Below are positions 3,868 through 33,482 of a stretch of 64,000 nucleotides of DNA, one piece after another; position 1 is the first letter of the stretch; each line of letters begins with the position of its first letter. Source of the DNA: an uncultured SAR86 cluster bacterium (GTDB taxonomy: Bacteria; Pseudomonadota; Gammaproteobacteria; Magnimaribacterales; TMED112). Under the pieces are notes generated by a model. That model worked only from the letters and a program-made list of their open reading frames with translations, was not told the DNA's origin and made no database searches. The translations under genes were made by a program, and so were the position numbers. The DNA is taken from positions 109,213-173,212 of the forward strand of contig CACHFV010000001.1 of the NCBI GenBank assembly GCA_902579195.1, given 5' to 3'.

Positions 3868-3998
3868 CTGATATTTTTGGCCTCTAGAATCATCATTTGG
3901 TCTGTCATTATAGTTTTATGAAAACCAGTCTTCCACTAATTGTTTGTAAATCTTAATTAATGATAGTTTTATATGAATAAATTAGCTAATAGCAACAT

Positions 3999-4556
3999 TT
4001 ATTCATCAGAGAAACTTGCTTTGAGCTTTTTTGTGAATTCTTTGACTCTTTGCCAATCTGTGAATTCAAATGTGCCATTTGTATCGGTTGGTCCTCCTGT
4101 AATCCACATAATAAATTTGATCATATGTTTGTCGATGAAATGGTACTTGGGATAATCAATTACCCCAGCAAACACATCGACTTCTTTTGGAGACCAGCCT
4201 GTTTTTTTTATAAATTTTTGTACGTAGGGATTAGTATTTGGCATGTTCTTTTCAGTTTTTCTAGCAACAGCATTCACACTAAAGAAAGCTGCGTTCTTAG
4301 TCACTAGAACATCTCTATTATCTTTAATGAATTTCATTAATTTAGGCTGATGATTCCCATATCTTATGCTTGCACCAATAACAATATGATGATGAAGATT
4401 TAAATCCTCTGCAGTAGTATCATCAACCTTTTTTAAATTGATATCACACTCATCCTCAAAGCCTGCTGCAATCGATTGAGTTATTTTGTGAGTATGGCCA
4501 TCAGTTGTGGAAAATATAAATAAGATTTTCTTCATTTCATTAGAATTATATGACAT
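3999..4556 (-). CDS. hemG: Flavodoxin-like protoporphyrinogen IX dehydrogenase (HemG type)
   Basis: About 180 aa with a flavodoxin-like N-terminus KKILFIFSTTDGHTHKI and the long-loop HemG layout. The true start may be M8 (4535). Confidence 0.75.
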   Translation of the reverse strand: MSYNSNEMKKILFIFSTTDGHTHKITQSIAAGFEDECDINLKKVDDTTAEDLNLHHHIVIGASIRYGNHQPKLMKFIKDNRDVLVTKNAAFFSVNAVARKTEKNMPNTNPYVQKFIKKTGWSPKEVDVFAGVIDYPKYHFIDKHMIKFIMWITGGPTDTNGTFEFTDWQRVKEFTKKLKASFSDE

Positions 4557-9682: not shown

Positions 9683-12670
9683 ATGAATAAATTTTATAAT
9701 GCAATTGTCGTTGTTTTAACGACTCTTTTCGTTGCTGCTTGTGGTGGGGGGAGTTCGTCTCCTGCTCCAACGCCAGCTCCTACACCGGCTCCAACGCCGG
9801 CTCCAACGCCAGCTCCTACACCGGAGCCAACACCAGAACCAACCCCAGAACCAACCCCTGCACCGGTTTCAGATTGTGCAGTAGGTGATGATTCAGGTGT
9901 TGATTATGCAGACTTTGATGGTCAGACTAAAAGCATTTGCGTTCTAAGTTTCCCAGCTGAACTACCAATCACAGGAGAAGTATCAATAAACAACGATGCT
10001 ATTTATGCTCTGAATGGTGCAGTTTTTGTGGGTGCTGGAATTAATGCAGATGGTTCAAGTGCTGGTGAAAATGGAATACTAAATATCGCTGAAGGTACAA
10101 CAATCATAGGTTCAGCAGGTGCAAATTACGAAGATGCAACTGCTCTAGTAGCCTCCTTTGACTCTGCTTTAGAAGTTTCTGATACAGACGTTGACTACTT
10201 AGTGGTAAGCCCAGGCTCACAACTTAATATTAGTGGTTCTTCTACAATGCCAGTAGTTATGACAGGTGCAAGTGATTTAACTGGTGAAGTTAATGATGGT
10301 GCTCAGTCACAATGGGGCGGTTTAGTTATATCTGGTTTAGCTACTCAGAATAACTGTAATATCGATGATATTGGTACTGCTGCATGTACTGCAGAAGGTG
10401 AAGGCGCCTCAGGATACTATGGCGGCACAGATGATGCAGACAACTCAGGTACAATGGCTTATTTCCAAGTTAAATATGCTGGATACCTTTTCACAAATGA
10501 AGATGAGTTAAATGGTATTGCTTTCCAAGCTGTTGGTTCAGGTACTGATGTTTCTTATGTACAGGTTCATAATGGTTCGGATGATGGTATCGAATGGTTT
10601 GGCGGTACAGTCGGCATTAAGAATTTTGTTGTCACAGGAGCATCAGATGATTCTCTTGATTGGACAGATGGATGGAGAGGTTATGCACAATACGGAGTTG
10701 TTGTACAGACACTCTTCCCTGTAACTGATGCATCAAGATCTAAGGATAATACTATTGAGGCAGACAACTTAGGTTCTGATATGGATAGAGCTCCAAGATC
10801 ATTCCCGTCACTTGCTAATGTAACATTTGTTCAAGATTACGGTGGCGATAAACTTCAGCTCAGAGAAGGAACAGGAATCAATTTATGGAATTCAATTGTT
10901 TCTGGTAATCCTGAAGATTCAGACGGATGTGTTGACGTTGATGATGATGAAACATTTAGATTCATGAGCGAAGAGAATGGTCTAAGTTTAGCTGGAACAT
11001 TATTTGACTCTGTTAAGTGTGGTACATGGTACTTTGATGATGGTAATGGTAATGTTGAAGCAGGCGGTGGCCTCGAAGATGACAACGATGTTGCTGATGG
11101 TGGATTTGCCTTTGATGTAGCAGCGTATATTGAAGCTAACGCTAATGTTGGTGCAACAGGTCTTCATGGCAGAATGAGGAATGCTGCTTACATAACACAT
11201 CCACTTGTTGGTTCATATTATGATGCAGCTGACGCTAATTCTATCGATCCAAGAGTTGAAACTGCTTCATTTATTGGTGGTGTTGAAAGCGAAGCAAATG
11301 ACTGGACAGTTGGCTGGACATTTGGTTTGCATATGGATGAGTTTGAATGTCCATATGGTACAACACTTGGCAACATGAAAGACGGTGCTGGTGCAGCGTG
11401 TGAACTTGTTGCTGCTCAATCAGAAGATAAGAACATAAGACTTGTTGGTGGTGGTTTACCATATCTTATGAAAGAGCAAGTGAAAGTCGGTGATGGAACA
11501 AATGTTGGTGCTAAGTACCTACAGATTGATCCTGGTGTAACTCTTTATAGTGACAGTGTCTTTGGTGAAGGTGCCACAGATGAGTATGATGCTATCGTTG
11601 TTCCGACATTCTCTAAAATTATGGCCAACGGTGCTCCAGGAGCTCCTGTAACAATGACATCAGGACGTGAAGTTAGATATCCAAGTGGTGATAATGCTGT
11701 TTCAGTAAACACCTCATCAGATTGGGGCGGTCTTGTAATTAATGGCTTAGCCACGCAAAACAATTGTAATGAAGCTGACCTAGGAACAGCAGCATGTACA
11801 GCTGATGGTGAAGGTAATTCAGGAAGTTATGGCGGTACAGATGATGCTGATAACAGTGGAAACCTTTTCTACTTAGTTCTTAAATACGCAGGTAGATTGT
11901 TTAATGCAGAAGATGAGCTTAATGGTATTGCATTCCAAGCCGTGGGAAGTGGTACAGAAGTTGATTATGTTCAGACATTTAATACTTCCGACGACGGAGT
12001 AGAATTCTTTGGTGGAACTGTGAGCGCTAAGCATTTGCTAGTGATGGGTGCATCCGATGATTCTATTGACTGGACTGATGGTTGGAGAGGTAATATCCAG
12101 CACGCTATTGTCTGGCAAGACCAAGGTCAAACCTTTGGGAAGGACAGGTCTATTGAAGCTGATAACTATGGCTCAGATATGGACAGATTGCCAAGGTCTA
12201 ATCCACAAATTGCAAACTTAACTATTGTCAGTGATGATGGTCAAGCAATTCTGCTTAGAGAAGGGACCGGCTTAGGGTTATACAACTCTGTTATCGCAGA
12301 TGATTCTGGCGAAAGTACATGTTTAGATATCGATAACGTTACTACGGCTGATTTCAATGGTGACGGTACTCTCGGTGAGGGACATGATTATGTTGGTAGT
12401 TTATTTGCTTGTGCAACAGCAGCAGATGCTGGTACTGGCGAAGATGATGTTTCAGCAGCAGATACACTTGCTTTAATGGAAGCTAACAGCACTGTAAGTG
12501 AAAATGGTGATTCCTTAAGTGGGTATACCAATGGAAGTGTTGAGGCTGCATTAACTCCAGCTGACACTTCATCAAATAGCTTCTTTGAAGCAACTGATCA
12601 TGTTGGTGCCGTAGCATCAGCTGAGTCAGACTGGACATCAGGATGGGCTTACTTTCCTGAGTCAGAGTAA
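9683..12670 (+). CDS. Large lipoprotein of unknown function with a Pro/Thr-rich tether and two tandem ~470-aa modules
   Basis: Lipobox TTLFVAAC followed by GGGSS. (PAPT)n(PEPT)n linker. Two paralogous modules lie 470 codons apart ([68 protein letters not shown]). An SD-like aggaaag precedes the ATG. Confidence 0.8.
9761..9865 (+). repeat. In-frame 12-bp-period tandem repeat encoding (PAPT)5(PEPT)3
   Basis: The nucleotide period cct/cca gct/gag cca acg/aca is repeated about 8.5 times. It encodes [35 protein letters not shown] directly after the lipobox. Confidence 0.85.
10307..10906 (+). repeat. Intragenic duplication, core of module A
   Basis: [33 protein letters not shown]...[15 protein letters not shown] aligns residue for residue with module B, with roughly 60 percent identity by eye. 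Confidence 0.8.
11717..12301 (+). repeat. Intragenic duplication, core of module B
   Basis: [33 protein letters not shown]...[15 protein letters not shown]. The W codon is offset exactly 1410 nt from module A, and module B is 5 codons shorter overall. Confidence 0.8.
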
Positions 12671-12708
12671 TTGCTTACCTCGCAGTTAGTAATTAACTCA
12701 GCCCTTTT

Positions 12709-12739
12709 AGCCACCTCTTCGGAGGTGGCTTTTTTTTTT
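12709..12739 (+). terminator. Rho-independent terminator
   Basis: Perfect 9-bp stem agccacctc / gaggtggct with a ttcg tetraloop and a run of 9 T, 39 nt after the lipoprotein stop. Confidence 0.85.
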
Positions 12740-12742
12740 AAA

Positions 12743-12760
12743 TTTCACAGGTTTGTAACA
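12743..12760 (+). promoter_or_regulatory. TTTCACA-N4-TGTAACA motif pair upstream of the TBDR gene
   Basis: Two heptamers with 11-bp spacing, related to the TGTCACA/TGTAACA copies at 9563..9631. Confidence 0.25.
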
Positions 12761-12813
12761 TTAAAGATTCATATGCTTCTTAAAATCATTAGAGGCATTC
12801 AGGAGTCACGCAA

Positions 12814-15339
12814 ATGAAAAGATCAATTTTTTATACACTATTTTTAACAACATTTATCCTTGGACAAGAAAGTTCAGAAGAACAAAACCAAAATGGGTCC
12901 ATTGAAGAAGTTCTTGTATCTGTAAGTTTTATCCCAGATGAAAAGAGAGATACAAGTGAAATTTCAAGCACTCTATCATCAGAATCTATGAGCATAGCTG
13001 GAGATAGTGAAGCTGCTGATGCATTAAAAAGAGTAACAGGCCTAAGTTTGGTTAAAGGCAAATATGTTTATGTTCGAGGTTTAGGTGAGAGATATTCCTC
13101 TGCTTTATTAAATGGGGTTCTTTTACCAAGTCCTGAACCTTTAAAAAGAGTCGTGCCCTTCGATATATTCCCTACTTCTATTTTAGAAAATGTTCTTGTT
13201 CAAAAAACATACTCTGCTCAATATCCAGGCGAGTTTGGTGGGGGTGTAATAGATATGAGAACTAAGCTTATACCTAATGAGGAGTTTTATGAGCTTGGTA
13301 TTTCAACAACATATGATTCACTAGCAACTGGTACAGAGGGAGATATAATGCCTGGTTATGATGATGATTGGACAGGGTTTGATACTGGCTACAGAGACCT
13401 TCCAAAATCACTAGGACCATTATATGAACAGGGAGATTTTATCTCTTTAGCAATAGCTTCATATTACGATATACAATCTGCTGCTCAGGGGTTTCCTGGT
13501 CAATGGCTCCCTGAAAAAGAAAGCTTTAATCCAGATTATGGATTTGATTTTGCTTATGGTAATTCTTATGACATGGGTGAGCTTGGAAACCTAGGTATAA
13601 TTATTTCAGCAGGCTACGATGCTTCGAATGATTATCAACCAGATATTGAAAGGAAAAATTTTTCAAGAGGTACTGGCGATTCATTGGTGGCAATGGATCA
13701 GTATCAAGTAAAGAAAAGCAATAAACAGATCGATACAAATGTTTTAACAACGGTTGGATGGGATATAGATAATTTCAATTATCTACAGTTTACTGGTTTG
13801 ATTGTTCGTAAAACAGACAACAGGCTCACTATAAGTGAGGGCAGAAATATAGAAGCTGACTTTGATGAAAGAAGAACAAAAATGGAATGGGTTGAGAGAT
13901 CAATTACATCCTCAACAATATCTGGAAAACATGATTTGGCTAGTGGATTATCAATTGATTGGAGAACAAGTTATGCAACTGGAAAGAGAAATTCACCATT
14001 TGAGAGAGAATACTTTTATGAGTTTCAAAACGGTGCCTATGAATTTTCACGTAGACAGGACAGCAATTACACAAACTTCTCTTGGTTAAATGATAATTCA
14101 ACTGAAACTGCCATTGATTTTATGTATCCAATTGAAACTGACAATATCATTGCAAATTTAAAGTTTGGATTTAAGACACTAAACAAAGAAAGAAATACCG
14201 ATGTTAAAAGGTATGCATTCTTACCAGATTTCACTAATGGTGCTTTATTTGCTGATCGTGAATTTAGAAGACAACCTATAGATATAATTATGGATCCTCA
14301 AAACTTTAGATATGACCGAACCGGACTTGTGCTAACAGAACTTTCTCTCAATACAGATAATTATGAAGGTGATATGTCTGTTGATGCTTGGTACGTTTCT
14401 GTTGAGAGCGACATCACAGAAACATTGAGTGTTAGTATCGGTGCTAGAAATGAAGATTCGCTGCTTGAAACAAATACTCGAACTTTTTTTGGTGGTTCTG
14501 ACAATGTTCAATCTGTAGATGCATTAGATAAATTGCTTCCAGCCCTTACGGCAACATACCAATTAAATGACAGCATGCAGATAAGATTTGGAATGAGTGA
14601 AACAATCTCTAGACCAATGTTCAGGGAAATGTCGCCTGTCTTGTTTGTTAACTTTGAAACTGACAGATTAGAACGTGGTTTTTCTGGAATAGTCTCATCA
14701 GAAATTGAAAATTTAGATCTCAGATATGAGTGGTATTTTGGTTTTGATGAATTTCTAACAATATCTTATTTTGAAAAAGATTTTGTAAATCCAATTGAGC
14801 AAGTTTTGGAAGCTGCAGCTACAAGCTCTTATGTAAGTTATCGAAACGCATTATCTGCTGAGCTTCAAGGAGCTGAATTTGAATATCAAAAACAATTTGG
14901 TGAATTAATCCAGGGTTTTGATTTCTTTGGAAAGATAAACTACACAGTTACAGACTCAAATGCAGTAACTAATCCGGAATTTATTACCTTATCTTCTTAC
15001 GATGATAGACCGCTTGTTGGGCAACCAGACGATATTTTAAATATCCAAATTGGTTATTATGGATCGGATGATTCAAGGCTAAGCATAATTTATAACGACG
15101 TTGGTAACAGAATAAGAGAGCTTGGATCAGATGTAATACCAAATGTTATGGAAGACCTTCCAGAAACCTTGGATATAGTTTACAAAAAAACATTTCAAGC
15201 CATTGATGGAAATTTAGATTTAACAATAAAGTTAAGAAATTTACTTGAGGAGCCTTATGAAGCATTGCAAGGCAATCAAGTTTATGAAACTTATTCATCA
15301 TCATCCTCAATTTCTATAGGCTTGAAGTACAGTTATTAA
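12814..15339 (+). CDS. TonB-dependent receptor (oligosaccharide-type plug subfamily)
   Basis: Signal peptide, TonB-box-like IEEVLVSVSF, plug VYVRGLGERYSSALLNGVLLPSPEPLKRVVPFDIFPTS...PGEFGGGVIDMRT, a long beta-barrel and an aromatic C-terminus. Confidence 0.9.
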   Translation: MKRSIFYTLFLTTFILGQESSEEQNQNGSIEEVLVSVSFIPDEKRDTSEISSTLSSESMSIAGDSEAADALKRVTGLSLVKGKYVYVRGLGERYSSALLNGVLLPSPEPLKRVVPFDIFPTSILENVLVQKTYSAQYPGEFGGGVIDMRTKLIPNEEFYELGISTTYDSLATGTEGDIMPGYDDDWTGFDTGYRDLPKSLGPLYEQGDFISLAIASYYDIQSAAQGFPGQWLPEKESFNPDYGFDFAYGNSYDMGELGNLGIIISAGYDASNDYQPDIERKNFSRGTGDSLVAMDQYQVKKSNKQIDTNVLTTVGWDIDNFNYLQFTGLIVRKTDNRLTISEGRNIEADFDERRTKMEWVERSITSSTISGKHDLASGLSIDWRTSYATGKRNSPFEREYFYEFQNGAYEFSRRQDSNYTNFSWLNDNSTETAIDFMYPIETDNIIANLKFGFKTLNKERNTDVKRYAFLPDFTNGALFADREFRRQPIDIIMDPQNFRYDRTGLVLTELSLNTDNYEGDMSVDAWYVSVESDITETLSVSIGARNEDSLLETNTRTFFGGSDNVQSVDALDKLLPALTATYQLNDSMQIRFGMSETISRPMFREMSPVLFVNFETDRLERGFSGIVSSEIENLDLRYEWYFGFDEFLTISYFEKDFVNPIEQVLEAAATSSYVSYRNALSAELQGAEFEYQKQFGELIQGFDFFGKINYTVTDSNAVTNPEFITLSSYDDRPLVGQPDDILNIQIGYYGSDDSRLSIIYNDVGNRIRELGSDVIPNVMEDLPETLDIVYKKTFQAIDGNLDLTIKLRNLLEEPYEALQGNQVYETYSSSSSISIGLKYSY

Positions 15340-17496: not shown

Positions 17497-18321
17497 ATGG
17501 GCTTTCTAAGACACCCGATTGCAATTTTTACCGCTGCTGCTGTAGCAACTATATGCATAACTCCAATAACATCAGTATCGAATCTATTCTGGCTGATCTC
17601 AGCTGATATGCCAGTAACTTTGTGGACATGGCTGAGCATTATTTTTCAGGATTTTTTTAATTTAGGAATACCATTGCTTCTAGTCTTTGCTATTGGCTTT
17701 TCAATTGCATTTGCAGTGGCGAGGTTATTAATTATTCTCTTTAGATTGCCACCCAAGTTTATGTATGCTCTGGCTGGCTCCATAGCAATCGGAACAGCAT
17801 TATTTCTAATGGTAGAGCTATTGTTTAAAACTCATCCAATTGCTGGTAACAGAACACTTATTGGATCATTTTTTCATCTTGTTGGAGGATATTTTGGAGG
17901 ATTAGTTTTCTATAAAATGATAAATAAACCTACTACAGAGACATTAATTATAAGGTTTTTAGCATTTATACCGTTCATCTTGTTAGGCTCATCATCAGTT
18001 ACTTGGATTTTTGATCCAATTGTAGCTGCATCATCATTTGGCTTTGATTTTGAATCATTAAGCGATTATGGCAAGAATACTCTAATAAGAGATATGACAG
18101 CATTTTTTCTTGGCTTATCAATCTTCATGTTGCTTGGTATTATAACTTTAAACCAAACATGGTTTTTTTCTGTTTCTATAGTGATGGCTTGCGCCTTTCT
18201 TTTTAATTTGGTTGCAGTATTCCTATACGAAACTAACCAAAACTCAGCAATGATTTTTGAAGTTGTAGTAGCATTTTGGTTTTTAAGTTTAGGTTTGTGG
18301 CTTAAAAAACTTAAAAATTAA
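17497..18321 (+). CDS. Polytopic membrane protein, unknown function
   Basis: At least 7 hydrophobic segments and no recognisable motif. It starts 1 nt after the stop of the preceding dehydrogenase. Confidence 0.6.
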   Translation: MGFLRHPIAIFTAAAVATICITPITSVSNLFWLISADMPVTLWTWLSIIFQDFFNLGIPLLLVFAIGFSIAFAVARLLIILFRLPPKFMYALAGSIAIGTALFLMVELLFKTHPIAGNRTLIGSFFHLVGGYFGGLVFYKMINKPTTETLIIRFLAFIPFILLGSSSVTWIFDPIVAASSFGFDFESLSDYGKNTLIRDMTAFFLGLSIFMLLGIITLNQTWFFSVSIVMACAFLFNLVAVFLYETNQNSAMIFEVVVAFWFLSLGLWLKKLKN

Positions 18322-18374: not shown

Positions 18375-18451
<77 letters not shown>

Positions 18452-18494
18452 GTAATGTAGATTTCTATTCCAAAAAAAACTATTCTTAAACTTA

Positions 18495-18575
18495 AGTGCA
18501 AAGGGGAGGCTATGCCTGAGATCTTTTTAGGAACCCTTTGAACCTGAACCATACAATGATGGCGGAGGAATTGCA
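18495..18575 (+). promoter_or_regulatory. TPP (THI-box) riboswitch
   Basis: tgcaa-AGGGGAGGCtatGCCTGAGA...ACCCTTTGAACCTGA-ACCATacaATGATGG-CGGAGGAA-ttgca matches the THI element cores CUGAGA, ACCCUUUGAACCUGA and GCG-AGGGA. P1 (18497..18501 with 18571..18575) closes onto the SD and the start codon. Confidence 0.85.
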
Positions 18576-20662
18576 TGAATAACATCATAAATTATCTATA
18601 TATTCTCGTTCTACTAGTGTCTTTAAGCATTTGTGCTGAAGAAGTTGAAGAAATAATTATCAAAGCAGACTGGCGCGAAGCACCTATTACAGACGGTGAT
18701 ACAAGTACCTTTGTGTTAAGTGGCAATGAAATCAAAGCACAACCAATAAAACATTTCGAGAACCTGTCGTATCTTGTCCCAAATTTAAATTTTGCTGCAA
18801 GTGATTCGAGAGCTAGGTATTTTCAAATTAGAGGCATAGGTGAAAGATCGGGTTATCTTGGCACACCTAACTCTTCTGTTGGCTTTTTAATTGATGATGT
18901 TGACTACTCAGGGCAAGGTGGTATCGCTACTTTGTTTGACGTCGATCAGGTTGAAGTCATTAGAGGTCCTCAGGCATCAAGAATTGGAGCCAATGCTCTT
19001 GCTGGACTAATTTATATTAAAACAAAAGAACCAACGGAAGAATTTGAAGCTAGTTCAGAAATAAACCTTGGATCTTATAACACTCAAAGTGCTGGCATAG
19101 CATTAAGTGGACCAGTGACAAAAAATAAAGACGTTAAATTCCGTTTTGTTGTTCGTCAGGATCAGTCCGATGGATTTCGTAAAAATTTGTTTTTAAATAA
19201 ATCAGACACATCTAGCAAAGATGAATTAACCCTTAGATTAAAAATTGATTTTAAACTATCAGAAACAAGCAACAGCAAACTACTTTTGAGTTCTGTCGAT
19301 ATGGATGATCCTGCAGATATATGGACTATAGACAATTCTCTCAATACATTGTCAGACAGACCAGGCATGGACTCACAAAAAACTGATACGCTCGGCTACA
19401 AGTACTTTAAAAAATTTGATCAGTTTGAATTGCAAAGCTTCACAAGCACCACTGATACATTTGTAGTATTTAGTTACGATGCAGATTGGGGAAATTCTGA
19501 ATCTCACGCTCCTTATACTTACGACTATTTTTCAGAAACCTTGCGAGATAGGCAATCATTTAATCAAGAGTTTAGGTTGGTTTCTAATTCAAATAATGTG
19601 CCCTTCAGTTGGGTATTGGGAACGACATTTCTATCGCTCGATGAAACAAATGATAGGCAAGATGATGGAATATATGGAGATCCCTCTGATCCATTTGGGC
19701 CGTATGAAAGCCTAACCATATCAAGCAGTGATTACAGTTCTAATAATTTATCTTTTTTTGGAAACATTGATTATGAGCTAGCTAAAGATTTAGTTATTTC
19801 ATTGGGTGTAAGAGCAGAAGAATGGAAAGCCAAATATTCAGATACTAATAATGAAAATTTTAATCTCTCCAATGATATGTTCGGAGGCAAGGTATCTGTG
19901 AGTTATTTGATGGAGAACATTGGAAATGCATATTTAAGTTACGCGAAGGGTTATAAACAAGGGGGATTTAACGTAGGTCTAGGACTATTAGGACAGGTAG
20001 ATCCAAATGAGCTTGAATATGACCCTGAATATTTAACAAATTATGAACTAGGCATTAATTCAAAGATCAGTGATTTTACAGATTTGAGCTTTAATATTTT
20101 TTATTCCCAGAGAGAGGATCAACAGGTATTGATTTCAACACAAGTTGACCCAAATGACCCCAACACTTTTGTTTATTTAACTCAAAATGCTGCAGAGGGC
20201 CTGAATTATGGGTTTGAAGGATCATTCGATACGCAATTAAATGACGCATTGTCTCTATTCCTAAATCTGGGGTATCTGGAGACCGAGATCAAAAATTGGG
20301 CTTCAAGGCCTGATATTGAGGGGAGAGAACAAGCACACGCACCAAAGTATAGTTTCTCTGCTGGAGCAGAATATTATTTCCAAGAAAATACTTCATTTGA
20401 AATTAACTTCATAGGGAAAAGTGGTTTCTACTATTCAGATTCACATAACAATAAATCTGACTCATACGTTTTAACTAATGCAGCTCTTCGTCATAGTGTT
20501 GATAACTGGGTGATTGATTTATGGGTGCAAAATCTATTCGATGAATATTACTCAACAAGAGGGTTCTTTTTTGGAAATGAAGCACCTGACTTTATAGATA
20601 CTCTTTATAGAAGGCACGGGGATCCAAGACACTTTGGGTTATCTGTAAGATATGATTTCTGA
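18575..20662 (+). CDS. TonB-dependent receptor, riboswitch-controlled (putative thiamine or thiamine-precursor receptor)
   Basis: Signal peptide, TonB box VEEIIIKAD, plug FQIRGIGERS...VEVIRGPQASRIGANALAGLIYI, and terminal HFGLSVRYDF. Confidence 0.9.
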   Translation: MNNIINYLYILVLLVSLSICAEEVEEIIIKADWREAPITDGDTSTFVLSGNEIKAQPIKHFENLSYLVPNLNFAASDSRARYFQIRGIGERSGYLGTPNSSVGFLIDDVDYSGQGGIATLFDVDQVEVIRGPQASRIGANALAGLIYIKTKEPTEEFEASSEINLGSYNTQSAGIALSGPVTKNKDVKFRFVVRQDQSDGFRKNLFLNKSDTSSKDELTLRLKIDFKLSETSNSKLLLSSVDMDDPADIWTIDNSLNTLSDRPGMDSQKTDTLGYKYFKKFDQFELQSFTSTTDTFVVFSYDADWGNSESHAPYTYDYFSETLRDRQSFNQEFRLVSNSNNVPFSWVLGTTFLSLDETNDRQDDGIYGDPSDPFGPYESLTISSSDYSSNNLSFFGNIDYELAKDLVISLGVRAEEWKAKYSDTNNENFNLSNDMFGGKVSVSYLMENIGNAYLSYAKGYKQGGFNVGLGLLGQVDPNELEYDPEYLTNYELGINSKISDFTDLSFNIFYSQREDQQVLISTQVDPNDPNTFVYLTQNAAEGLNYGFEGSFDTQLNDALSLFLNLGYLETEIKNWASRPDIEGREQAHAPKYSFSAGAEYYFQENTSFEINFIGKSGFYYSDSHNNKSDSYVLTNAALRHSVDNWVIDLWVQNLFDEYYSTRGFFFGNEAPDFIDTLYRRHGDPRHFGLSVRYDF

Positions 20663-21233
20663 TCTATTAAATTCAATATGGTTTGAAGTCTTTGCAGCAT
20701 TGTTGGCCATAACATATTTGGTTTTAGCAATGCAGCAAGATATTAGGTGTTGGATAGCATGGATCATAAGTTCAGTTATGTATTTCTTTGTCATGCTTAC
20801 AGCTGGACTGATAATGGAGGCTGCCCTGCAAATCTTTTATTTAATTATGGGGCTATATGGATGGAGTCAATGGAAGCGAAAAGCATCATCTCAAAGTTTA
20901 AATATCAAAACATGGACTTTGCGGCAACATTTTTCTGCACTGAGCCTGCTTTTTGTAGCTGTTGTTTGTTTTGGTTACCTTCTTACAGCAAATACAAATG
21001 CTGTATCACCATATATCGACTCATTTACAACATGGGGAGCCATCTTGGCTACCTATATGGTTGCAAAAAAAGTGCTTGAGAATTGGATCTATTGGTTTGT
21101 AGTTGATTTTGTATCAGTGTTCCTATTCTTAAGCAGAGAGCTTTATCCAACTGTTGTTTTGTTTGTTATATATTTAATAATTATTGTATTTGGCTACAAG
21201 GCTTGGCTGAAATCAATGAATACGCATGAGTAA
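20652..21233 (+). CDS. PnuC-family transporter (PnuT-like, putative thiamine permease)
   Basis: 193 aa with about 7 TM segments and the PnuC signature region QIFYLIMGLYGWSQWKR. It overlaps the TBDR gene by 11 nt. Confidence 0.8.
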   Translation: MISDLLNSIWFEVFAALLAITYLVLAMQQDIRCWIAWIISSVMYFFVMLTAGLIMEAALQIFYLIMGLYGWSQWKRKASSQSLNIKTWTLRQHFSALSLLFVAVVCFGYLLTANTNAVSPYIDSFTTWGAILATYMVAKKVLENWIYWFVVDFVSVFLFLSRELYPTVVLFVIYLIIIVFGYKAWLKSMNTHE

Positions 21234-22029
21234 TATTGAGAATTTTCTTAACACAGCTGAAAAAGATATTGCTTTGATAAAAACTATTCAGAAAACAAAA
21301 TTTTCAGAGGTTTATGAGTGCAGGTTGGATGGTAAGGATGCCATTCTTAAAATTAAGACAGACTATACCTTTGAAAACGACATTGGCATTGAAGAAATAA
21401 TTGTTAATCGACTTCACAAACTTAATTTAACACCGCGAATTTTACATGCTGATACACAAAAAAAAGTAGTGATATACGAAAAAGTGATTGGTTCTGATCT
21501 GAGCACAGTTCCTAAAGCAAATATTATCTCTAAATGCGCAAAGCAACTAAAGAAACTTCACAACTCAAATATTGTTTGTGACGATTGTAGTTCATTCAAG
21601 AGTAAAATTAAGAAATATGAGCATGCCATTGCTCAAAAAACGTCAAACTTATTCTATCGAAGTGCTTTCATGTTTATTTATAAGTTAGCAGCAAGGGATA
21701 AACATCAGGTGTTTTGTCATAATGATTTGAACTTATCCAACATAATGTATTCAGATGATATTTTTTTCATTGATTGGGATTATGCCGGTTTCAATCATCC
21801 TTATTTTGACCTCGCTCTACTTTTTAATGCTATGAATTTGACAAGCAATGAAGAATATAACTTTTTAAGCATCTATGCCGATCAGGAAAATAATATTGAT
21901 CACGATTTATTAAAAGAATATAAAAAAATGTCTTTGTACGTCGAATACTTATGGATTGTTGCAACATCTAGCCAAGAAAACCCCAAATACGCCACGCGTT
22001 TTGATGAGTTAACCACACTTCTTCGATAG
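21226..22029 (+). CDS. Choline/aminoglycoside-kinase-fold phosphotransferase, thiamine-kinase-like
   Basis: Brenner-type catalytic loop FCHNDLNLSNIM and metal-binding IDWDYAGFN. The size matches ThiK (about 270 aa). It overlaps the pnuC-like gene by 8 nt. Confidence 0.7.
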   Translation: MSNIENFLNTAEKDIALIKTIQKTKFSEVYECRLDGKDAILKIKTDYTFENDIGIEEIIVNRLHKLNLTPRILHADTQKKVVIYEKVIGSDLSTVPKANIISKCAKQLKKLHNSNIVCDDCSSFKSKIKKYEHAIAQKTSNLFYRSAFMFIYKLAARDKHQVFCHNDLNLSNIMYSDDIFFIDWDYAGFNHPYFDLALLFNAMNLTSNEEYNFLSIYADQENNIDHDLLKEYKKMSLYVEYLWIVATSSQENPKYATRFDELTTLLR

Positions 22030-24243: not shown

Positions 24244-26364
24244 ATGAAAAAACATCAAATTTTAATTTTAATACTAAGCATTTCGAGCTTTTCACATGCT
24301 CAAGATGTTGAAGAAGTTGTAACTTCTGCTCTTGCAGACCCGTCGCAAATTGAAAATCCACTCCATTTGGTTAAAAGTGTTGATTTGGAGGCTGAGCCGA
24401 CCACTAGTTTAGGCGAAGCTTTAGATAATTTAGCAGGGGTAGGTTCTGCTGACTATGGTGCTGCTATTGGCCAGCCAATTATTAGAGGCCTATCTGGCGC
24501 ACGGATAAAAGTACTAAATAATGGGTTAGTTGTTAGAGATGTTGCAGGCATTGGTGCTGATCATCCTAATGACATAGATCTTAGCAATGCTTTACAGGTC
24601 GAAGTAGTTAGAGGTCCATCTTCATTGCTTTATGCAAATGGAACCATTGGTGGAATTATAAATGTTGTCGACAATTCAATTGCAAAAAGCGATTTTGATG
24701 GCTTTTCTGGAAGTCTTGGTTATGAAATGCAGGAAGTCAATGATGGCAGTGTTTCAACCTATAACTTCCAGCATAATGTTGCCGGTCTTAACTTTTATCT
24801 AAGTGGGTTAGATTCCGATTTTGAAAATTACGTAACTCCAAGAGGTTCTGTTATTGAAGATGGAATGAAAGCTGATGAAAGCATCGTAATGAATTCTGAT
24901 TCAGCCGCTGAGACAGGTAAATTTGGAGTTTCTAAGACAGGAGATTGGGGCTACATAGGCATGTCACTATCATCTGCGGAAAGAGTTCATGGTATCCCTT
25001 TTCATGGTGAAGAGGATGATGAACACGAAGGTGAAGAGCATGATGAGCATGAAGGCGAAAGAATATTTGCCATGACTGAATCTGATATCTTCACTTTGCA
25101 GGGTTCATTGAACTTAGGTAATGGTTTAGTAAACAAAGTTGATTACTTCTTAACAACTTCAGAATATTCATTGATGGAACAGCATGCCGAAGAGCAAGGT
25201 GAAGAGCATGAAGGCGAAGATCATGATGAGCATGAAGGCCATAGTGAAGAGCCAGCATTATTCACAAATGATGCGACAGAATTTGGAATGATTTTTGATC
25301 TATCGAATGATAAGCGTACTCAAAAAATATCCATGAATTTTGCTGAAGAAGAAATGGTAATAGCTGGCGAGGAAGCATTTATGCAACCAACAATGAGTGA
25401 AGAGTTTACTATTGGTTATTTTATGAGCCAAGATATTGGTACTGCTCACCTTGATTTTGGAATCAGGTTTGATGACATTACAAGAGATGGTTCAGTCGCT
25501 GAAATGCACCATGAAGATGAGGATCATGATGAGGATCATGAAGGTGAAGAAGAAGTGGAGGATTATAGCTTTAACTATTCAACCACAAATTACTCCCTTC
25601 AACTGACCCAAAGTTTAACTGATAAATTATCTTTCGTTTTAAGTGGCACAAGTGCAGATAGAGCTCCTGGAGCACAAGAATTATTCATGAATGGCCCACA
25701 TTTAGCTACAAGACGTTTTGAAGTTGGAAATGTAAATCTTAATCCTGAAAAGTCTAATAACCTTGATATGTCATTGAATTATAGCGATGGAGGTATTTTT
25801 GCTAAATACACTGTTTATGTAAATAACGTGAATGACTTTATCTACTTGTTGGATGAGTCAGATGAAGATCATGAAGAGCATGAAGAAGAGCATAGTGGGC
25901 TTACATTAGCAGAGTATCTGCAAAATGATGCAAAGTTCACAGGTTATGAATTTGAATTGGGTAATAGCTATCAATTAGAAAATGGCACACTTACTGCAAC
26001 TGTTGGCTTAGATGCTGTTGAAGGTAAGCTTAAAGATTCACAAATGTTTGTGCCTCGTATGATGCCTAAGAGAAGATTCATGAATCTTGATTATGTTTCT
26101 GGTGATTACTCTGCTGGAGTTTCTTATAAAGAAGTTCAACCACAAGATAATGTAGCAGAAGGTGAAACTGGAACTGATGGGTATAGAATGCTGGATCTTG
26201 ATGCCTCTAAATCTTATGACTTAGGCGATGGCGTAACATTCAGATCGTCCGTATTCATTAAAAACCTTCTTGATGAAACAGCTAGAAACCATACTTCATT
26301 TGTAAAAAATGAGGTTCCACTAGCTGGCAGAAATGTTGGTTTCAAATTTAGAATTACTTTCTAA
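24244..26364 (+). CDS. TonB-dependent receptor with four His/Glu/Asp-rich insertions (ZnuD-like, putative metal receptor)
   Basis: Strong SD aaggaggt, signal peptide, TonB box VEEVVTSAL, plug IIRGLSGARIKVLNNG...VEVVRGPSSLLYANGTIGGIINV, and terminal FKFRITF. The inserts are HGEEDDEHEGEEHDEHEGE, HAEEQGEEHEGEDHDEHEGHSEE, HHEDEDHDEDHEGEEEVED and DESDEDHEEHEEEHSG. Confidence 0.9.
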   Translation: MKKHQILILILSISSFSHAQDVEEVVTSALADPSQIENPLHLVKSVDLEAEPTTSLGEALDNLAGVGSADYGAAIGQPIIRGLSGARIKVLNNGLVVRDVAGIGADHPNDIDLSNALQVEVVRGPSSLLYANGTIGGIINVVDNSIAKSDFDGFSGSLGYEMQEVNDGSVSTYNFQHNVAGLNFYLSGLDSDFENYVTPRGSVIEDGMKADESIVMNSDSAAETGKFGVSKTGDWGYIGMSLSSAERVHGIPFHGEEDDEHEGEEHDEHEGERIFAMTESDIFTLQGSLNLGNGLVNKVDYFLTTSEYSLMEQHAEEQGEEHEGEDHDEHEGHSEEPALFTNDATEFGMIFDLSNDKRTQKISMNFAEEEMVIAGEEAFMQPTMSEEFTIGYFMSQDIGTAHLDFGIRFDDITRDGSVAEMHHEDEDHDEDHEGEEEVEDYSFNYSTTNYSLQLTQSLTDKLSFVLSGTSADRAPGAQELFMNGPHLATRRFEVGNVNLNPEKSNNLDMSLNYSDGGIFAKYTVYVNNVNDFIYLLDESDEDHEEHEEEHSGLTLAEYLQNDAKFTGYEFELGNSYQLENGTLTATVGLDAVEGKLKDSQMFVPRMMPKRRFMNLDYVSGDYSAGVSYKEVQPQDNVAEGETGTDGYRMLDLDASKSYDLGDGVTFRSSVFIKNLLDETARNHTSFVKNEVPLAGRNVGFKFRITF

Positions 26365-26464
26365 TTCTTAGTCGATCTAACTAGGGTCTTTGCACCTCGC
26401 TGGCCCTAGTTAGGTGTTTACAAGTGCATAAAGATAAAGCAAAATTCAAGCTTAAACTTTTCAT

Positions 26465-26881
26465 ATGTATAACGATCAATATAAGTCTGACAGAATAGCA
26501 GCCTCAATGTCGCTGATTTGTGTGTTGCATTGCTTGTTTGTGCCTTCTTTCTTTATTGCAGTTTCAAGCACTTCTGCTTTAACTATCGATAATGACATCA
26601 TTCATTACTTACTATTAATTGTTACTCTTCCTGTGAGCTTATATGCCCTGCACCTTGGGTTAAAAAATCATAAGAAAAAAGGAGTTTTCGCCCTTGGCAT
26701 TACTGGGCTAGTGCTCTTTGTTTTGGCTGTGTTATTTGGCGAGGTTTACGCCGGTGAAACAGGAGAGCAAGTTGTCACAGTAATAGCCTCTTTGATAGTG
26801 ATTTATGCTCACTATCAAAACTTCCAAATTTGTCGAAAGCTTGAGTGCTCATCATGCCATAGTTCTGTTGCAGAAAAGTAG
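26465..26881 (+). CDS. MerC-domain-like small membrane protein with a Cys/His-rich tail
   Basis: 4 predicted TM segments. The TM1 motif SLICVLHCLFVPS resembles MerC-domain proteins. The C-terminal tail is CRKLECSSCHSS. Confidence 0.6.
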   Translation: MYNDQYKSDRIAASMSLICVLHCLFVPSFFIAVSSTSALTIDNDIIHYLLLIVTLPVSLYALHLGLKNHKKKGVFALGITGLVLFVLAVLFGEVYAGETGEQVVTVIASLIVIYAHYQNFQICRKLECSSCHSSVAEK

Positions 26882-26916
26882 CAGTTAATAAAACAAATTA
26901 ATTTATAATATATATA

Positions 26917-27735
26917 ATGAAAACTAATGCTTTTGTTCTGATTTTTATCTCCTTGCTAGCATTGCCTGAAACAAAAGGACATCAAGGATTAATGGCAACT
27001 TTATTTGTTCAAAAATCTGCCGAGTTTTACAGCAATTCTATTGGCATTTATAACTCTGCTATGGATAAACTACCAGCACTTGTAGAGGATAAAAATTATA
27101 CAGCTGCCCTTGAACAAACTTCAGGGTTTTCTGGGAAACCACCTGCTGTAATTTTAGATATAGATCAGACTGTATTAGACAACATAGCCTATCAAGCTCG
27201 TTTAATTGAAAATGGAAAATATTATCCTGATGGTTGGGATGCTTGGTGTATGGAAGAAAAAGCTTATTACATTCCCGGTGTAGAGCAGTATCTTGCTCTT
27301 GCAATTAGCCTTGGTGTAGAAGTGTTCTTTGTTACTAATCGCACAGCAAACCTTGAAGAAGCAACAAGGAACAATTTAGAAAAACTGGGATTTTCATTTT
27401 CAACAAAACTAGATCAGCTTCTTATGAAAGGCGAGAAGCCAGAATGGACTTCCGATAAAACATCAAGACGTCAGCTTATTGCTGATGATTATCGCATTGT
27501 CATGATGATTGGCGATAATTTTGGTGATTTTGTTAGCTTAGATGTGAATCGATCATCAACAGAGCAAAGAAATGATGCAGCTAAAGCATACAATGAAATG
27601 TGGGGACATAGCTGGTTTATGCTTGCAAACCCAACTTATGGTGATTGGGAAAGCGCTTTCATTGGTTTTGATTATGGCATTCCAAGATCAAAACAGCTTG
27701 AGATGAAGCTAAAGGCCTTAGATCAGCAAAGATGA
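26917..27735 (+). CDS. Class C (e(P4)-like, HAD superfamily) acid phosphatase / 5-prime-nucleotidase, secreted
   Basis: Bipartite DDDD signature VILDIDQTVLDNIAY and VMMIGDNFGDF. It has a signal peptide without a lipobox Cys. Confidence 0.8.
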   Translation: MKTNAFVLIFISLLALPETKGHQGLMATLFVQKSAEFYSNSIGIYNSAMDKLPALVEDKNYTAALEQTSGFSGKPPAVILDIDQTVLDNIAYQARLIENGKYYPDGWDAWCMEEKAYYIPGVEQYLALAISLGVEVFFVTNRTANLEEATRNNLEKLGFSFSTKLDQLLMKGEKPEWTSDKTSRRQLIADDYRIVMMIGDNFGDFVSLDVNRSSTEQRNDAAKAYNEMWGHSWFMLANPTYGDWESAFIGFDYGIPRSKQLEMKLKALDQQR

Positions 27736-28982
27736 AGTTTCTAAAATATTTTTTTGTAGCACTTTTGTCGATCGTAGTCACTTTAATCGCAGTTAATCAA
27801 TATGTACCTGTTCTTATCGATGTGCCAAAAAAAGATAGATTGCTTATCGATTTTAATTTTGGAAAGAAAATCACCAATAAAGAACTTATCCCTGTAGAAA
27901 GAAAAGCTAAAAATATAATACTTCTAATTGGTGATGGGTTGGGGAGCAATCAAATTGTTGCCTATAAGATAGCTAAAGAAGGGCCAAATGCCATAACTGC
28001 TTTTGATGTGTTTCCTGTATCAGGACTTGTTAAGACGCATGCTTATAACACATTAGTAACCGACTCAGCATCATCTGCTACAGCTTACAGCTCTGGCACA
28101 AAAACGATCAATCGATATGTGGGAGTGGATCATGAAAAAAATCCAGTCACCAATATTACAGAATTGCTTCATAAAAAAGCTTATGTAAACAGCATAATTG
28201 CAACATCTGAAATCACTCATGCAACGGTAGCCGCTTTTGCTGCACACACAGAATCTCGGTACAACACAGACGCTATTGCCGAGCAAATATTTTATTCAAA
28301 TAATTATTTTGTATTGGGTGGTGGATCTGACTTCTTTAAAATAAAAGAGGATGGCGGTTTAAGAGAGGATGGAAAGGATTATTTGAGCAAAATTAAAACT
28401 GATGAAATCCTTTTAGAAACAAAAAACGATTTAGTTAACCATAGATTTAAAAAGGGTAAGAAAATTTTTGGGCTATTCAATAAAGAGGAACTAATTAGAG
28501 AAGCACACGAACCTTCACTGAAAGAAATGCTTGATTTTGCTTTAGTTAATTCAAACTCAATGCTTGAGCAGGGGTGCAAAGGATTTTTCATTTTGGCAGA
28601 GGGTTCACAGATTGATTGGGAAGGTCATGATAATGATTTCTATGGACAATACGATGAAATAGAAGAATTTGAGAATGCGATTACAAGTGCATTAGCTTTT
28701 GCAAAGAATAGAGAAGATACTCTCGTTCTGGTGACGGCAGATCATGAAACAGGAGGCCTGCTGATCGAAAAAGATACTCTCAGATATAAAGAAACCAATC
28801 AGATGAAAGTTTCGTGGAATACTGCTATTGGTAAAGGCGATCATACAGGCGCAATGGTACCAATCTTCGCATATGGCCCTGGCTCAGAAAACTTCACAGG
28901 GATTCTGGACAATACAGATATATTCTTTGCTATGCAGGAAGCTATAGGTATTAATGATCTGCCTGATGGTACATGCTACTAG
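27732..28982 (+). CDS. Alkaline phosphatase (PhoA family)
   Basis: Active-site region VTDSASSATAYSSGTKT, then EGSQIDWEGHDN and TADHETGG. It has an N-terminal anchor or signal and an ATGA overlap with the acid phosphatase gene. Confidence 0.85.
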   Translation: MKFLKYFFVALLSIVVTLIAVNQYVPVLIDVPKKDRLLIDFNFGKKITNKELIPVERKAKNIILLIGDGLGSNQIVAYKIAKEGPNAITAFDVFPVSGLVKTHAYNTLVTDSASSATAYSSGTKTINRYVGVDHEKNPVTNITELLHKKAYVNSIIATSEITHATVAAFAAHTESRYNTDAIAEQIFYSNNYFVLGGGSDFFKIKEDGGLREDGKDYLSKIKTDEILLETKNDLVNHRFKKGKKIFGLFNKEELIREAHEPSLKEMLDFALVNSNSMLEQGCKGFFILAEGSQIDWEGHDNDFYGQYDEIEEFENAITSALAFAKNREDTLVLVTADHETGGLLIEKDTLRYKETNQMKVSWNTAIGKGDHTGAMVPIFAYGPGSENFTGILDNTDIFFAMQEAIGINDLPDGTCY

Positions 28983-31515: not shown

Positions 31516-31591
31516 GGGGCTATAGCTCAGCTGGGAGAGCACCTGCTTTGCACGCAGGGGGTCAGGAGTTCGAATCTCCTTAGCTCCACCA
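31516..31591 (+). tRNA. tRNA-Ala (anticodon UGC)
   Basis: GGGGCTA-TA-GCTC-AGCTGGGA-GAGC-A-CCTGC-TTTGCAC-GCAGG-GGGTC-AGGAG-TTCGAAT-CTCCT-TAGCTCC-A-CCA. The G3:U70 identity pair is present and CCA is encoded. Confidence 0.95.
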
Positions 31592-31601: not shown

Positions 31602-32381
31602 ATGAATCTAGAAGTCTTTTTTATCGATTCGTTCACCAACAAAGTTTTTGGCGGTAATCCTGCAGGAGTAATTTTTCATTCTGATCCAATTGATGAGAAC
31701 GTAATGCAAGCAATTGCAGCTGAAAATAATTTATCAGAAACAGCATTCATCAATACTCAAAATGACAACCAAATAAGATTTTTTACCCCAGAGCTGGAAG
31801 TTGATTTATGTGGTCATGCAACATTGGCTTCTGCCTTTGTGTTCTTTAACTATCTTGATAAATCCCATGATCAAATTACTTTCTCATCTAAGAGAGGCCA
31901 ATTGATTGCAGATAGAGCAGAAAAAGGGATTAAGCTGACCTTGCCCAAAGATAACCCAGAGCCCTATGCAGAGATAGATTTATTTTCAAACATGCTTGGT
32001 TGCAAGGCGCTTGAGGTATGTAGAGGAATTGATGACTTTATGGTCTTAGTTGGAAGTGAAAATGATGTTAAAGATATGAAACCAGATTTTAGTGAGATAA
32101 GTAAGCTGGATTCGCGTGGTTTAATTGTTACAGCTGATGGATTAGATGTTGATTTTGTTTCAAGATGGTTTGGCCCGCAAACAGGAGTTGATGAAGATCC
32201 AGTAACTGGGTCTGCCCACACCTTGCTGGCTCCATATTGGGGCAAAAAACTTGGCAAAAATACAATGAATGCAAAACAGCTATCCAAAAGAGGCGGTTTT
32301 TTAATTTGTGAAGTGAAGGGTAAAGCAGTTGAAATAACAGGACAGGCTAAACTTTACTTAAGAGGCTCAATTGAGCTTTGA
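31602..32381 (+). CDS. PhzF-family isomerase
   Basis: FIDSFTNKVFGGNPAGV, LSETAF, FTPELEVDLCGHATLA and DPVTGSAH. Confidence 0.85.
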   Translation: MNLEVFFIDSFTNKVFGGNPAGVIFHSDPIDENVMQAIAAENNLSETAFINTQNDNQIRFFTPELEVDLCGHATLASAFVFFNYLDKSHDQITFSSKRGQLIADRAEKGIKLTLPKDNPEPYAEIDLFSNMLGCKALEVCRGIDDFMVLVGSENDVKDMKPDFSEISKLDSRGLIVTADGLDVDFVSRWFGPQTGVDEDPVTGSAHTLLAPYWGKKLGKNTMNAKQLSKRGGFLICEVKGKAVEITGQAKLYLRGSIEL

Positions 32382-33482
32382 AAGATCTTCTTTTAAGTAG
32401 ATACGTTGACTCTCAATAAGATTTTCAATCCTTGATTTTATATTTTCGTTGGGCCTTTCTTTTAAAGCTTCAATAAAAAAATAAATAGCACTAAGTGAAT
32501 CACCTATTGTTAAAAAATTGATTCCACACAGATAATTTTTTACAGAGCTACCAGTAAACTCGCATAAGTTCTGGTTGGTTGCAAAAGAATTTTCTGCGTA
32601 AGTTATTTGTAACAGCCTCTCCCTGGCACTATTTTTTATTTCCCATGGCACCGAATCAAATGAAAGTAGTTGTTTAAAGTTTGTCTTTGCTCCAGCATAA
32701 TTTTGCTTATGAAATTGAGCCTCACCAATCCAGTAGTATTTTAGTTCATATCTACCATGTAAATCTCTTGCATAGTCTTCCAATAAGACCCATTGCTGTT
32801 TTCTAGTGAACTGATCTATCTTTCTTAAAATTCTGGAGGGATAATCAGCAAAAGCTCTTCCTTCTAAATCAATCTCGTACGTAAATTTATGTGGAACATT
32901 GTTAACACGAATAGGTTCTCCATTTATGACTAATGGGTAATATTCTAATTTTTTTGCAGCAGCTAAAGTTGAATTATCAAACCGCTTGCAATCCTCAAAT
33001 CTATTGCCTTGTTCATTAAAGCAAACAGAGGAGACCTTTTTAACATTATCTACTTTGCCATTTTCCAAAATATCAAAACTGACTATCACTTCTCCCCAAT
33101 AGCCAAATTCTAGTGCGGAAGATGGGTAAACTGGTTGTTCTTTATACTTCGCTTTATATCCAATACCTACAAGTCTTGATAACCACATTAATTTAGGTAT
33201 ATCACAATCATCATGAATAATGCATTCAGGGTGAGGTTTAATCTTTTTTTGAAAGATTTCTGTTAATAGCTGAATATATTCATCATCCAAGTATTCCTTT
33301 AGCTCGTCTTTTTTATATGTGAAGCCTTGTGCATTTTTTGAGTAAAATAAACTGGATTCATAATCATACAAATTAAAATCAGCTGTTAAACCTTGTTCAG
33401 GCGGTGATGTAATTGCTTGTGGTTTTAGATTTGGACTAATAAAAAGCAATGAAATAATTAGCAATTTGATTATCTTGTTCAT
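32367..33482 (-). CDS. Secreted protein with a TonB C-terminal-like domain and a helical-repeat tail
   Basis: Signal peptide. The central segment [36 protein letters not shown] fits the TonB_C pattern. There is no N-terminal anchor or Pro-rich rod, so it is not a canonical TonB. Confidence 0.5.

Follow-up and report, generated by a model that had tools for sequence, protein, structure and literature searches.

How does a bacterium of the SAR86 cluster obtain vitamin B1 (thiamine)? SAR86 is regarded in the literature as auxotrophic for the vitamin: all thiamine biosynthesis genes were reported absent from SAR86A, C and D, and the same 2012 genome paper could identify no thiamine transporter (Dupont et al., PMC3358033). 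The DNA analyzed here, which we call the window, is a stretch of 64,000 nucleotides from an uncultured SAR86 cluster bacterium (assembly GCA_902579195.1, contig CACHFV010000001.1, positions 109,213 to 173,212 of the forward strand). An initial annotation of the window, made from its letters without database searches, had placed in it an operon for thiamine salvage under the control of a thiamine pyrophosphate (TPP) riboswitch, or THI element. The locus holds a TPP riboswitch, a TonB-dependent outer-membrane receptor (TBDR), a Pnu-family permease and a small-molecule kinase in one predicted transcription unit, which are the components of a salvage operon of the OMthi-PnuT-kinase type. In our judgment this is probably a three-gene, translationally coupled thiamine salvage operon of SAR86 that is repressed by intracellular TPP and whose product is most likely thiamine monophosphate (TMP).

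A conserved unit of riboswitch, receptor, permease and kinase

All parts of the unit lie on the + strand. The aptamer (18492 to 18587) matches the Rfam TPP family RF00059 over model positions 1 to 105 of 105 with a cmscan score of 56.0 bits against a gathering score of 54.3 (E 2.8e-8), so that the THI element proposed directly 5' of a 695-aa TBDR is borne out by a covariance model. The stop of the TBDR gene (18575 to 20662) overlaps the start of the gene for the 193-aa Pnu permease (20652 to 21233) by 11 nt (ATGATTTCTGA), and the stop of the latter overlaps the start of the gene for the 267-aa kinase (21226 to 22029) by 8 nt (ATGAGTAA). The initial annotation had placed the three genes, both overlaps and the kinase motifs HNDLNLSN and IDWDYAG correctly. 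A + strand consensus scan found no terminator-like site between the genes, its sole match lying inside the TBDR gene, and the promoter and terminator scans gave nothing convincing 5' of the aptamer or 3' of the kinase gene.

When one genome of each species was scanned for the kinase family, 40 related loci emerged. In 19 of these (L001 to L018 and L020), which come from SAR86, Woeseiaceae and other marine gammaproteobacterial metagenome-assembled genomes (MAGs), the TBDR, Pnu and kinase genes stand in the same order and orientation; the three genes, without regard to a riboswitch, are also present in L045, for a total of about 20 loci. The closest locus belongs to a SAR86 single-cell genome, with a kinase 89% identical and a TBDR and a Pnu permease 97% identical to those of the window. 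A TPP riboswitch above the gathering score stands directly 5' of the TBDR gene in 16 of the 19 loci, and in the remaining three (L002, L003 and L011) the contig ends within the TBDR gene or too near its start for an aptamer. These 16 aptamers score 54.3 to 68.7 bits and that of a further locus, L042, scores 71.1 bits, all at or above the Rfam gathering score. The riboswitch match is far beyond chance: 16 related loci and L042 pass the gathering score too, and in each the aptamer stands directly 5' of the TBDR-Pnu-kinase unit.

The flanking genes vary with the lineage (GAPDH/CIA30, methionine-pathway genes, dehydrogenases), and none is thiamine-related. Pairwise identity varies in step among the three proteins from locus to locus, and the kinase has therefore been inherited together with its transporters. 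It evolves about twice as fast as they do and is in every case the most rapidly changing of the three: TBDR, Pnu and kinase identities are 79%, 70% and 44% between L006 and L016, and 51%, 52% and 27% between the window and L013.

A more distant form of the unit is found in L042 (positions 257 to 4085 of a Logan ERR15087773 contig), which carries a TPP riboswitch, a TBDR, an 86-aa protein of the YkoF/Thiamine_BP type and P0143, a single protein of 443 aa that combines a Pnu permease domain with a kinase domain. A fusion of permease and kinase is what metabolic trapping, in which an imported compound is retained by phosphorylation, predicts. The 86-aa protein scores 25.8 bits against PF01910, over the gathering threshold of 24.9, and as a homologue of thiamine-binding proteins it links the unit with thiamine-type ligands by evidence other than the riboswitch.

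Some of the related loci have oddities of their own. L002 (NYXO01000058.1) is filed as a 'Methanobacteriota archaeon' MAG and carries a SAR86 block of TBDR, Pnu, kinase, GAPDH and CIA30 with 88-98% amino acid identity to the window; the contig is very probably mis-binned. The kinase match of L003 (2712 to 3667) falls into two pieces about 105 nt apart with residues 160-176 repeated, the TBDR of L007 (3263 to 5376) is split into two open reading frames (ORFs), and the TBDR, Pnu and kinase ORFs of L020 (2849 to 6330) are all shortened. Pseudogenes or assembly errors are possible explanations for these three.

The TBDR contains a plug domain (PF07715, 46.6 bits, cutoff 23.9) and a TonB_dep_Rec barrel (PF00593, 108.9 bits, cutoff 27). 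Its N-terminus is hydrophobic and signal-peptide-like, a TonB-box-like EEIIIKA was read by eye at residues 25-31, and the window has a gene for a TonB homologue (a TonB_C protein) at 32367-33482. No NCBIfam equivalog scored above its cutoff against the TBDR, and its solved relatives are distant only, the best being FyuA (3e-13). TBDR identity among the related loci is 51-79%, and identity to the L042 TBDR is 34% over the full length. We regard this protein, by its context, as a candidate thiamine receptor of the Omr1/OMthi type. Rodionov and colleagues reportedly predicted in 2002, from THI elements in proteobacteria, that Omr1 and PnuT are thiamine transporters. The likeness to those proteobacterial candidates, a TBDR with a TPP (or thiamine diphosphate, TDP) riboswitch nearby, is already known for SAR86, where omr1 with an adjacent TDP riboswitch was seen earlier in two MAG clusters (PMC10881298). 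That omr1 report makes no mention of a Pnu permease or of a kinase, and pnuT is absent from its list of marker genes.

By its sequence the second protein is an unambiguous member of the Pnu family, as the initial annotation had it: it matches PF04973 (NMN_transporter) with 160.3 bits over profile positions 2-175 of 175 and is homologous to the PnuC structure 4qtn (1.7e-4). Its best 120 homologues listed (P0168 to P0287) are 63-98% identical to it and apparently SAR86-type; the Joint Genome Institute (JGI) name for the homologues is 'nicotinamide mononucleotide transporter'. The PnuT of Shewanella woodyi facilitates the diffusion of thiamine and leaves TMP and TPP unbound, a property on which metabolic trapping depends (PMC5749112). 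From that work, together with the TPP riboswitch context, we infer that the SAR86 permease is a PnuT, a facilitator of thiamine. Because a TPP riboswitch lies upstream, PnuC or 'nicotinamide mononucleotide transporter' is most likely a misnomer here, and public databases probably misannotate PnuT-type proteins systematically. The pairing of a Pnu permease with a vitamin kinase is also seen in the PnuC/NadR system for nicotinamide riboside, which combines facilitated diffusion with trapping; there, however, the kinase belongs to a family different from that of the SAR86 operon, NadR being a P-loop kinase, and the SAR86-type pairing, unlike PnuC/NadR, extends to the gene fusion in L042. What the SAR86 pair would share with PnuC/NadR and with S. 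woodyi PnuT is a phosphorylated product that is not a Pnu substrate (PMC5749112).

The kinase falls within both PF01636 (APH, 61.4 bits, cutoff 23.2) and PF01633 (Choline_kinase, 46.1 bits, cutoff 29). It has the Brenner motif HxDxxxxN (H165-N166-D167...N172, the HNDLNLSN stretch) and a choline-kinase motif (D183-W-D-Y...N190-H-P-Y-F-D195, of which IDWDYAG is part). Over 11 operon-linked kinases that are otherwise 21-46% identical, the invariant residues are E56, H165-N166-D167, N172, D183, W184, Y186, N190-H191-P192-Y193, D195 and W243; the predicted catalytic set (E56, the Brenner motif and the Mg-binding D183) is thus complete. Among these residues are four conserved aromatics, W184, Y186, Y193 and W243, the last of which aligns with a Trp in the C-terminal helix of LicA. 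The AlphaFold (AF2) model of the kinase has a pLDDT of 80.7, and its best fold match by Foldseek is LicA (4r77/4r7b, TM-score 0.74-0.76), which is also the top solved relative by sequence (phmmer 5.7e-14 with the single protein, 2.8e-23 with the family profile). Streptococcus pneumoniae LicA (PDB 4r77/4r78/4r7b) has the Brenner motif, the choline-kinase motif and the aligned Trp in common with the SAR86 kinase. It acts on choline together with LicB, LicC and LicD for cell-surface phosphocholine, whereas the SAR86 kinase sits with a TPP riboswitch, a TBDR and a putative PnuT; none of licB, licC, licD and nadR occurs beside the kinase gene in the window or in any riboswitch-linked locus.

The wider kinase family comprises 36 representative clusters below 1e-30 and 1953 below 1e-10, and it includes genuine LicC-LicA-type fusions, only in branches other than that of the operon-linked kinases. 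The latter appear to be a lineage of bacterial choline-type kinases that has been co-opted for thiamine. Such a recruitment would be chemically reasonable, choline and thiamine both being cationic 2-hydroxyethyl alcohols. Among the closest homologues without a riboswitch, those in Firmicutes loci adjoin an inorganic pyrophosphatase gene and are uninformative on the substrate. A Cellvibrionaceae MAG (L024, 3014 to 6789) has a kinase homologue (114 bits with the family profile) as the last gene of an ATP-binding cassette (ABC) importer operon with a TOBE-domain ATPase and two permeases; no TPP riboswitch was detected at this locus. It suggests that the same kinase family may trap another imported compound, and is likewise uninformative on the substrate.

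A ribosome-binding site within the aptamer

The Shine-Dalgarno sequence GGAGGA (18564 to 18569), as read from the DNA, lies inside the aptamer. Its AGG (18566-18568) forms the 3' strand of helix P4, where it pairs with CCU both in the cmscan structure line and in the RNAalifold consensus. The AUG at 18575 lies 5 nt 3' of GGAGGA, and its A and U belong to the 6-bp helix P1 (GUGCAA/UUGCAU), whose 5' strand (18496-18501) and 3' strand (18571-18576) bound the aptamer core. The window has no separate expression platform, the mRNA leader being approximately the aptamer alone. GGCGGAGGAAU is the same in all 16 aligned loci, and in the majority a start codon stands 5-8 nt further on: 12 have AUG, three have what looks like UUG, and L012 is ambiguous. 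The riboswitch of L042 has an ordinary layout with about 50 nt from aptamer to start codon; the embedded ribosome-binding site (RBS) is therefore a feature of the SAR86/Woeseia-type group and not of the whole operon family.

Across the 16 aligned sequences the sensor motifs CUGAGA and ACCUGA...GGCG-AGG are invariant. In the RNAalifold alignment P3 covaries, with a UA pair in 9 of 16 sequences and a CG pair in 7 of 16, and P1 of L012 shows the compensatory change UGCA/UGCA to UCCA/UGGA; most other pairs never vary in these sequences and are uninformative on covariation. P1 was judged by duplex folding of each sequence separately, as a one-base register shift of the MAFFT alignment splits its 5' strand, and a P1 of 3-6 bp that reaches the putative start codon can form in every sequence.

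With the Shine-Dalgarno sequence in the 3' strand of P4 and the AUG in that of P1, the RBS would be locked into the folded aptamer once TPP binds. We infer that folding of P4/P5 stabilized by TPP, together with closure of P1, would bury the RBS, a mechanism known as direct occlusion. A 2024 review assigns TPP riboswitches, with their separate expression platform, to 'strand exchange' and lists as direct-occlusion classes only SAM-II/V, SAM-III, SAM-SAH and preQ1 (preQ1-I/II) (PMC10907184). The SAR86 leader resembles the direct-occlusion riboswitches SAM-II/V, SAM-III and preQ1-I/II in having the RBS embedded in the aptamer, and differs from the E. coli thiM, thiB and thiC TPP riboswitches in having no separate platform. 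The literature that we searched contains no description of a TPP riboswitch with the RBS in its aptamer, nor of the identity of the kinase. If the proposed mechanism is true, the SAR86 operon would be the first described case of a TPP riboswitch that acts by direct occlusion with its RBS built into the aptamer; a TPP switch in which the aptamer equals the leader would be a minimal natural regulatory part, possibly useful as a compact one.

The proposed salvage route and its rivals

In the route that we propose, the Omr1/OMthi-type TBDR would capture scarce thiamine at the outer membrane, energized by TonB, and the PnuT-type permease would let it diffuse across the inner membrane. The LicA-like kinase would then add a phosphate to this cationic vitamin at its hydroxyethyl group; the product, most likely TMP, could not exit through PnuT, so that the inward gradient would be kept. 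A TMP kinase (ThiL) encoded elsewhere would convert TMP to TPP. Expression of the Pnu and kinase genes would follow that of the TBDR gene by translational coupling through the 11-nt and 8-nt overlaps. The sequence of capture, diffusion and trapping had been put forward in the initial annotation, and it is supported by the conservation of a four-part unit whose surroundings are not shared, by the L042 fusion, by the published experiments on PnuT and OMthi and by the reported absence of the biosynthetic genes from SAR86; the word 'complete', which had been attached to it, says more than the sequence shows, as neither a TMP kinase nor a thiamine pyrophosphokinase (TPK) was found in the window.

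The closest known system is the OMthi-pnuT-tnr3 operon of Bacteroides (Costliow & Degnan 2017, PMC5613172; 10.1101/867226), which belongs to a different phylum. Logic and gene order agree: a TPP riboswitch is followed by genes for a TonB-dependent receptor, PnuT and a thiamine-phosphorylating enzyme. Genetic work in Bacteroides has established that OMthi and PnuT both serve thiamine uptake, and the transport riboswitches of B. thetaiotaomicron act on translation (PMC5613172; 10.1101/867226). The two operons differ in the last gene, which in Bacteroides encodes a thiamine pyrophosphokinase (Tnr3/TPK) that makes TPP in one step and in SAR86 a choline-kinase-fold enzyme expected to make TMP, and also in the embedded RBS of the SAR86 riboswitch. 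OMthi and the SAR86 TBDR are likened here by context and not by sequence. The SAR86 operon is thus a variation on a known theme of salvage operons and is not categorically new.

A number of results weigh against the thiamine salvage route. The permease passes the PnuC equivalog TIGR01528, whose name is nicotinamide riboside transporter, with 77.7 bits against a cutoff of 42.45. The nearest characterized relative of the kinase is LicA, which phosphorylates choline. Orthology of the kinase to ThiK was considered and rejected: TIGR02721 gave 45.1 bits against a cutoff of 299.45 (the best of the 11 operon-linked kinases reaching only E 3.9e-23), BLASTP aligned the catalytic loop alone with E. coli ThiK (27 bits), hhalign gave a probability of 70% at 15% identity, and the kinase family profile scores LicA at 83.7 bits and E. 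coli ThiK at 13.7. The leader has a folding energy no different from that of shuffled sequences (z = 0.76), so the case for an aptamer structure rests on the covariance model and on conservation, and the P4/P5 hairpin is also present in the ligand-free minimum free energy fold, which speaks against taking ligand-dependent exposure of the Shine-Dalgarno sequence as more than a proposal. Finally, Pfam scans of about 47 ORFs of the window and one PDB sequence search found no thiL, thiN/TPK or other thi gene, and neither thiL nor a TPK gene stands beside the operon in other lineages, where the neighbors are unrelated housekeeping genes; the product of the kinase may be a dead end unless a thiL or thiN gene lies elsewhere.

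The label 'ThiK-like' in the initial annotation can be kept in part. Melnick and colleagues are said to have identified ThiK in 2004, and that work or the one by Rodionov and colleagues may have noted kinase genes beside pnuT in proteobacteria. E. coli ThiK (YcfN) falls in the same Pfam family as the SAR86 kinase, PF01636, and shares with it the catalytic-loop and DWEY motifs and the proposed reaction, thiamine + ATP to TMP. It is without the N-H-P-Y-F-D choline-kinase motif of the SAR86 kinase and, unlike the latter, is linked neither to a riboswitch nor to a Pnu gene. On these comparisons the label is correct for the fold and the proposed chemistry and wrong for descent.

The database names allow an altogether different account, namely a PnuC for nicotinamide riboside next to an unrelated choline or aminoglycoside kinase, in an operon that has nothing to do with thiamine. 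The TIGR01528 score, the JGI name of the homologues and the best match of the kinase, LicA, all speak in its favor, but the window and 17 other loci all have a TPP riboswitch at the head of the operon, licB, licC, licD and nadR are not among the neighbors, genuine LicA relatives are fused to LicC-type nucleotidyltransferases while the operon kinase is not, and the Pnu::kinase fusion of L042 adjoins a homologue of thiamine-binding proteins. We therefore consider this account very unlikely. It is also rather improbable, though less so, that the operon imports and phosphorylates not thiamine but a precursor or breakdown product, such as hydroxymethylpyrimidine (HMP), the aminopyrimidines AmMP and FAMP, hydroxyethylthiazole (HET) or its carboxylated form cHET, with the kinase replacing ThiD or ThiM. 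Thiamine is only the putative substrate of the kinase; TPP riboswitches also govern transporters of precursors (thiV and thiXYZ of marine bacteria are examples), and B1 or HMP is given as the ligand of the YkoF family, which has a member in L042 (both PMC10881298); and SAR86 has been said to need 'an exogenous precursor' (PMC12998435). Precursors would, however, be useless without thiD, thiE or thiM, which were reported missing from SAR86A, C and D (PMC3358033) and of which none is in the window, the characterized PnuT binds thiamine (PMC5749112), and the choline-kinase motif and the aromatic residues would fit the cationic thiazolium ring better than neutral HMP or HET.

The remaining possibility concerns the last phosphate. 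SAR86 might lack both ThiL and a thiamine pyrophosphokinase, and the kinase, alone or with an unrecognized partner enzyme, might complete TPP from thiamine. This would agree with the lack of thiL or TPK genes among the window ORFs scanned and beside the operon in any locus, with the absence of thiL from its usual place after nusB, and with the Bacteroides enzyme at the equivalent operon position, Tnr3, which makes TPP directly. The kinase is nevertheless a single 267-aa domain of the APH/choline-kinase fold, a fold that transfers one gamma-phosphate to a hydroxyl, and the 64 kb of the window are about 5% of the genome, so that thiL may lie elsewhere. The published report on the thiamine genes of SAR86 is, besides, worded in general terms and may mean biosynthesis proper. 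We think it unlikely that TPP is made in this way; if it were, the operon would represent a previously undescribed last step in the formation of the B1 cofactor in highly abundant bacteria of the surface ocean.

Returning to the salvage route with TMP as its product, a thiL gene elsewhere in the genome is the likeliest answer for the step from TMP to TPP. In many Gammaproteobacteria thiL-pgpA occupies the place after nusB. The - strand of the window carries the conserved run glyA-nrdR-ribD-ribBA-ribH-nusB-proC (its nusB-proC end at 53869-55075), in which nusB (54653-55075) is followed by a pyrroline-5-carboxylate-reductase (proC-like) gene and not by thiL; the initial annotation had already noted the absence of thiL from this position. 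A 321-aa ORF at 46170-47135 with no Pfam match was considered as a divergent ThiL and set aside, as it matches a polysaccharide hydrolase instead. The search for thiL and thiN covered the window and the operon neighborhoods. The terms thiL, omr1 and SAR86 have no occurrence in the supplements of the SAR86 isolate paper and the B1 MAG paper.

Surroundings of the operon and meaning for SAR86

A tRNA-Ile(GAT) gene at 18375-18451 ends about 40-45 nt before the riboswitch, and L001, L004 and L005 are arranged alike; the operon may be transcribed from its own promoter or as read-through from the tRNA gene. Genes for tRNA-Ile(GAT) and tRNA-Ala(TGC) are normally found in the spacer of the rRNA operon. 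Here they are solitary and 13 kb apart, the latter at 31516-31591, and no rRNA gene lies within the 64-kb window. Just 5' of the tRNA-Ile gene, at 17497-18321, is the gene for a 274-aa multi-pass membrane protein with no Pfam match, which is syntenic only in the closest SAR86 lineages. Farther upstream (9683-15339) a 995-aa ORF without Pfam match is followed by the gene for an 841-aa protein whose one recognized domain is a TonB plug.

About 2 kb 3' of the operon, at 24244-28982, there is a four-gene cluster, with matching synteny in L045 (4423 to 7841). It encodes a further TBDR, whose long insertion is rich in His, Glu and Asp, a membrane protein resembling MerC, an acid phosphatase of the HAD-IIIB type (PF03767) and an alkaline phosphatase. 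PF03767 also contains Haemophilus e(P4), an enzyme that supplies PnuC with nicotinamide riboside. By analogy, periplasmic phosphatases could turn TMP or TPP into thiamine that PnuT then takes up; the four genes could alternatively serve a metal (zinc) or phosphate function.

Few heterotrophs of the surface ocean are as abundant as SAR86 bacteria, and the unit sharpens the question of where they obtain the second phosphate of TPP. It also offers a candidate thiamine kinase from the choline-kinase branch. Marker-gene surveys of B1 list omr1 and neither pnuT nor the SAR86-type kinase (PMC10881298). With the permease named for nicotinamide mononucleotide and the markers incomplete, two of the three genes therefore escape estimates of B1 uptake capacity made from metagenomes. 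The full unit would provide better markers for studies of marine B1 cycling and a complete uptake unit for SAR86.

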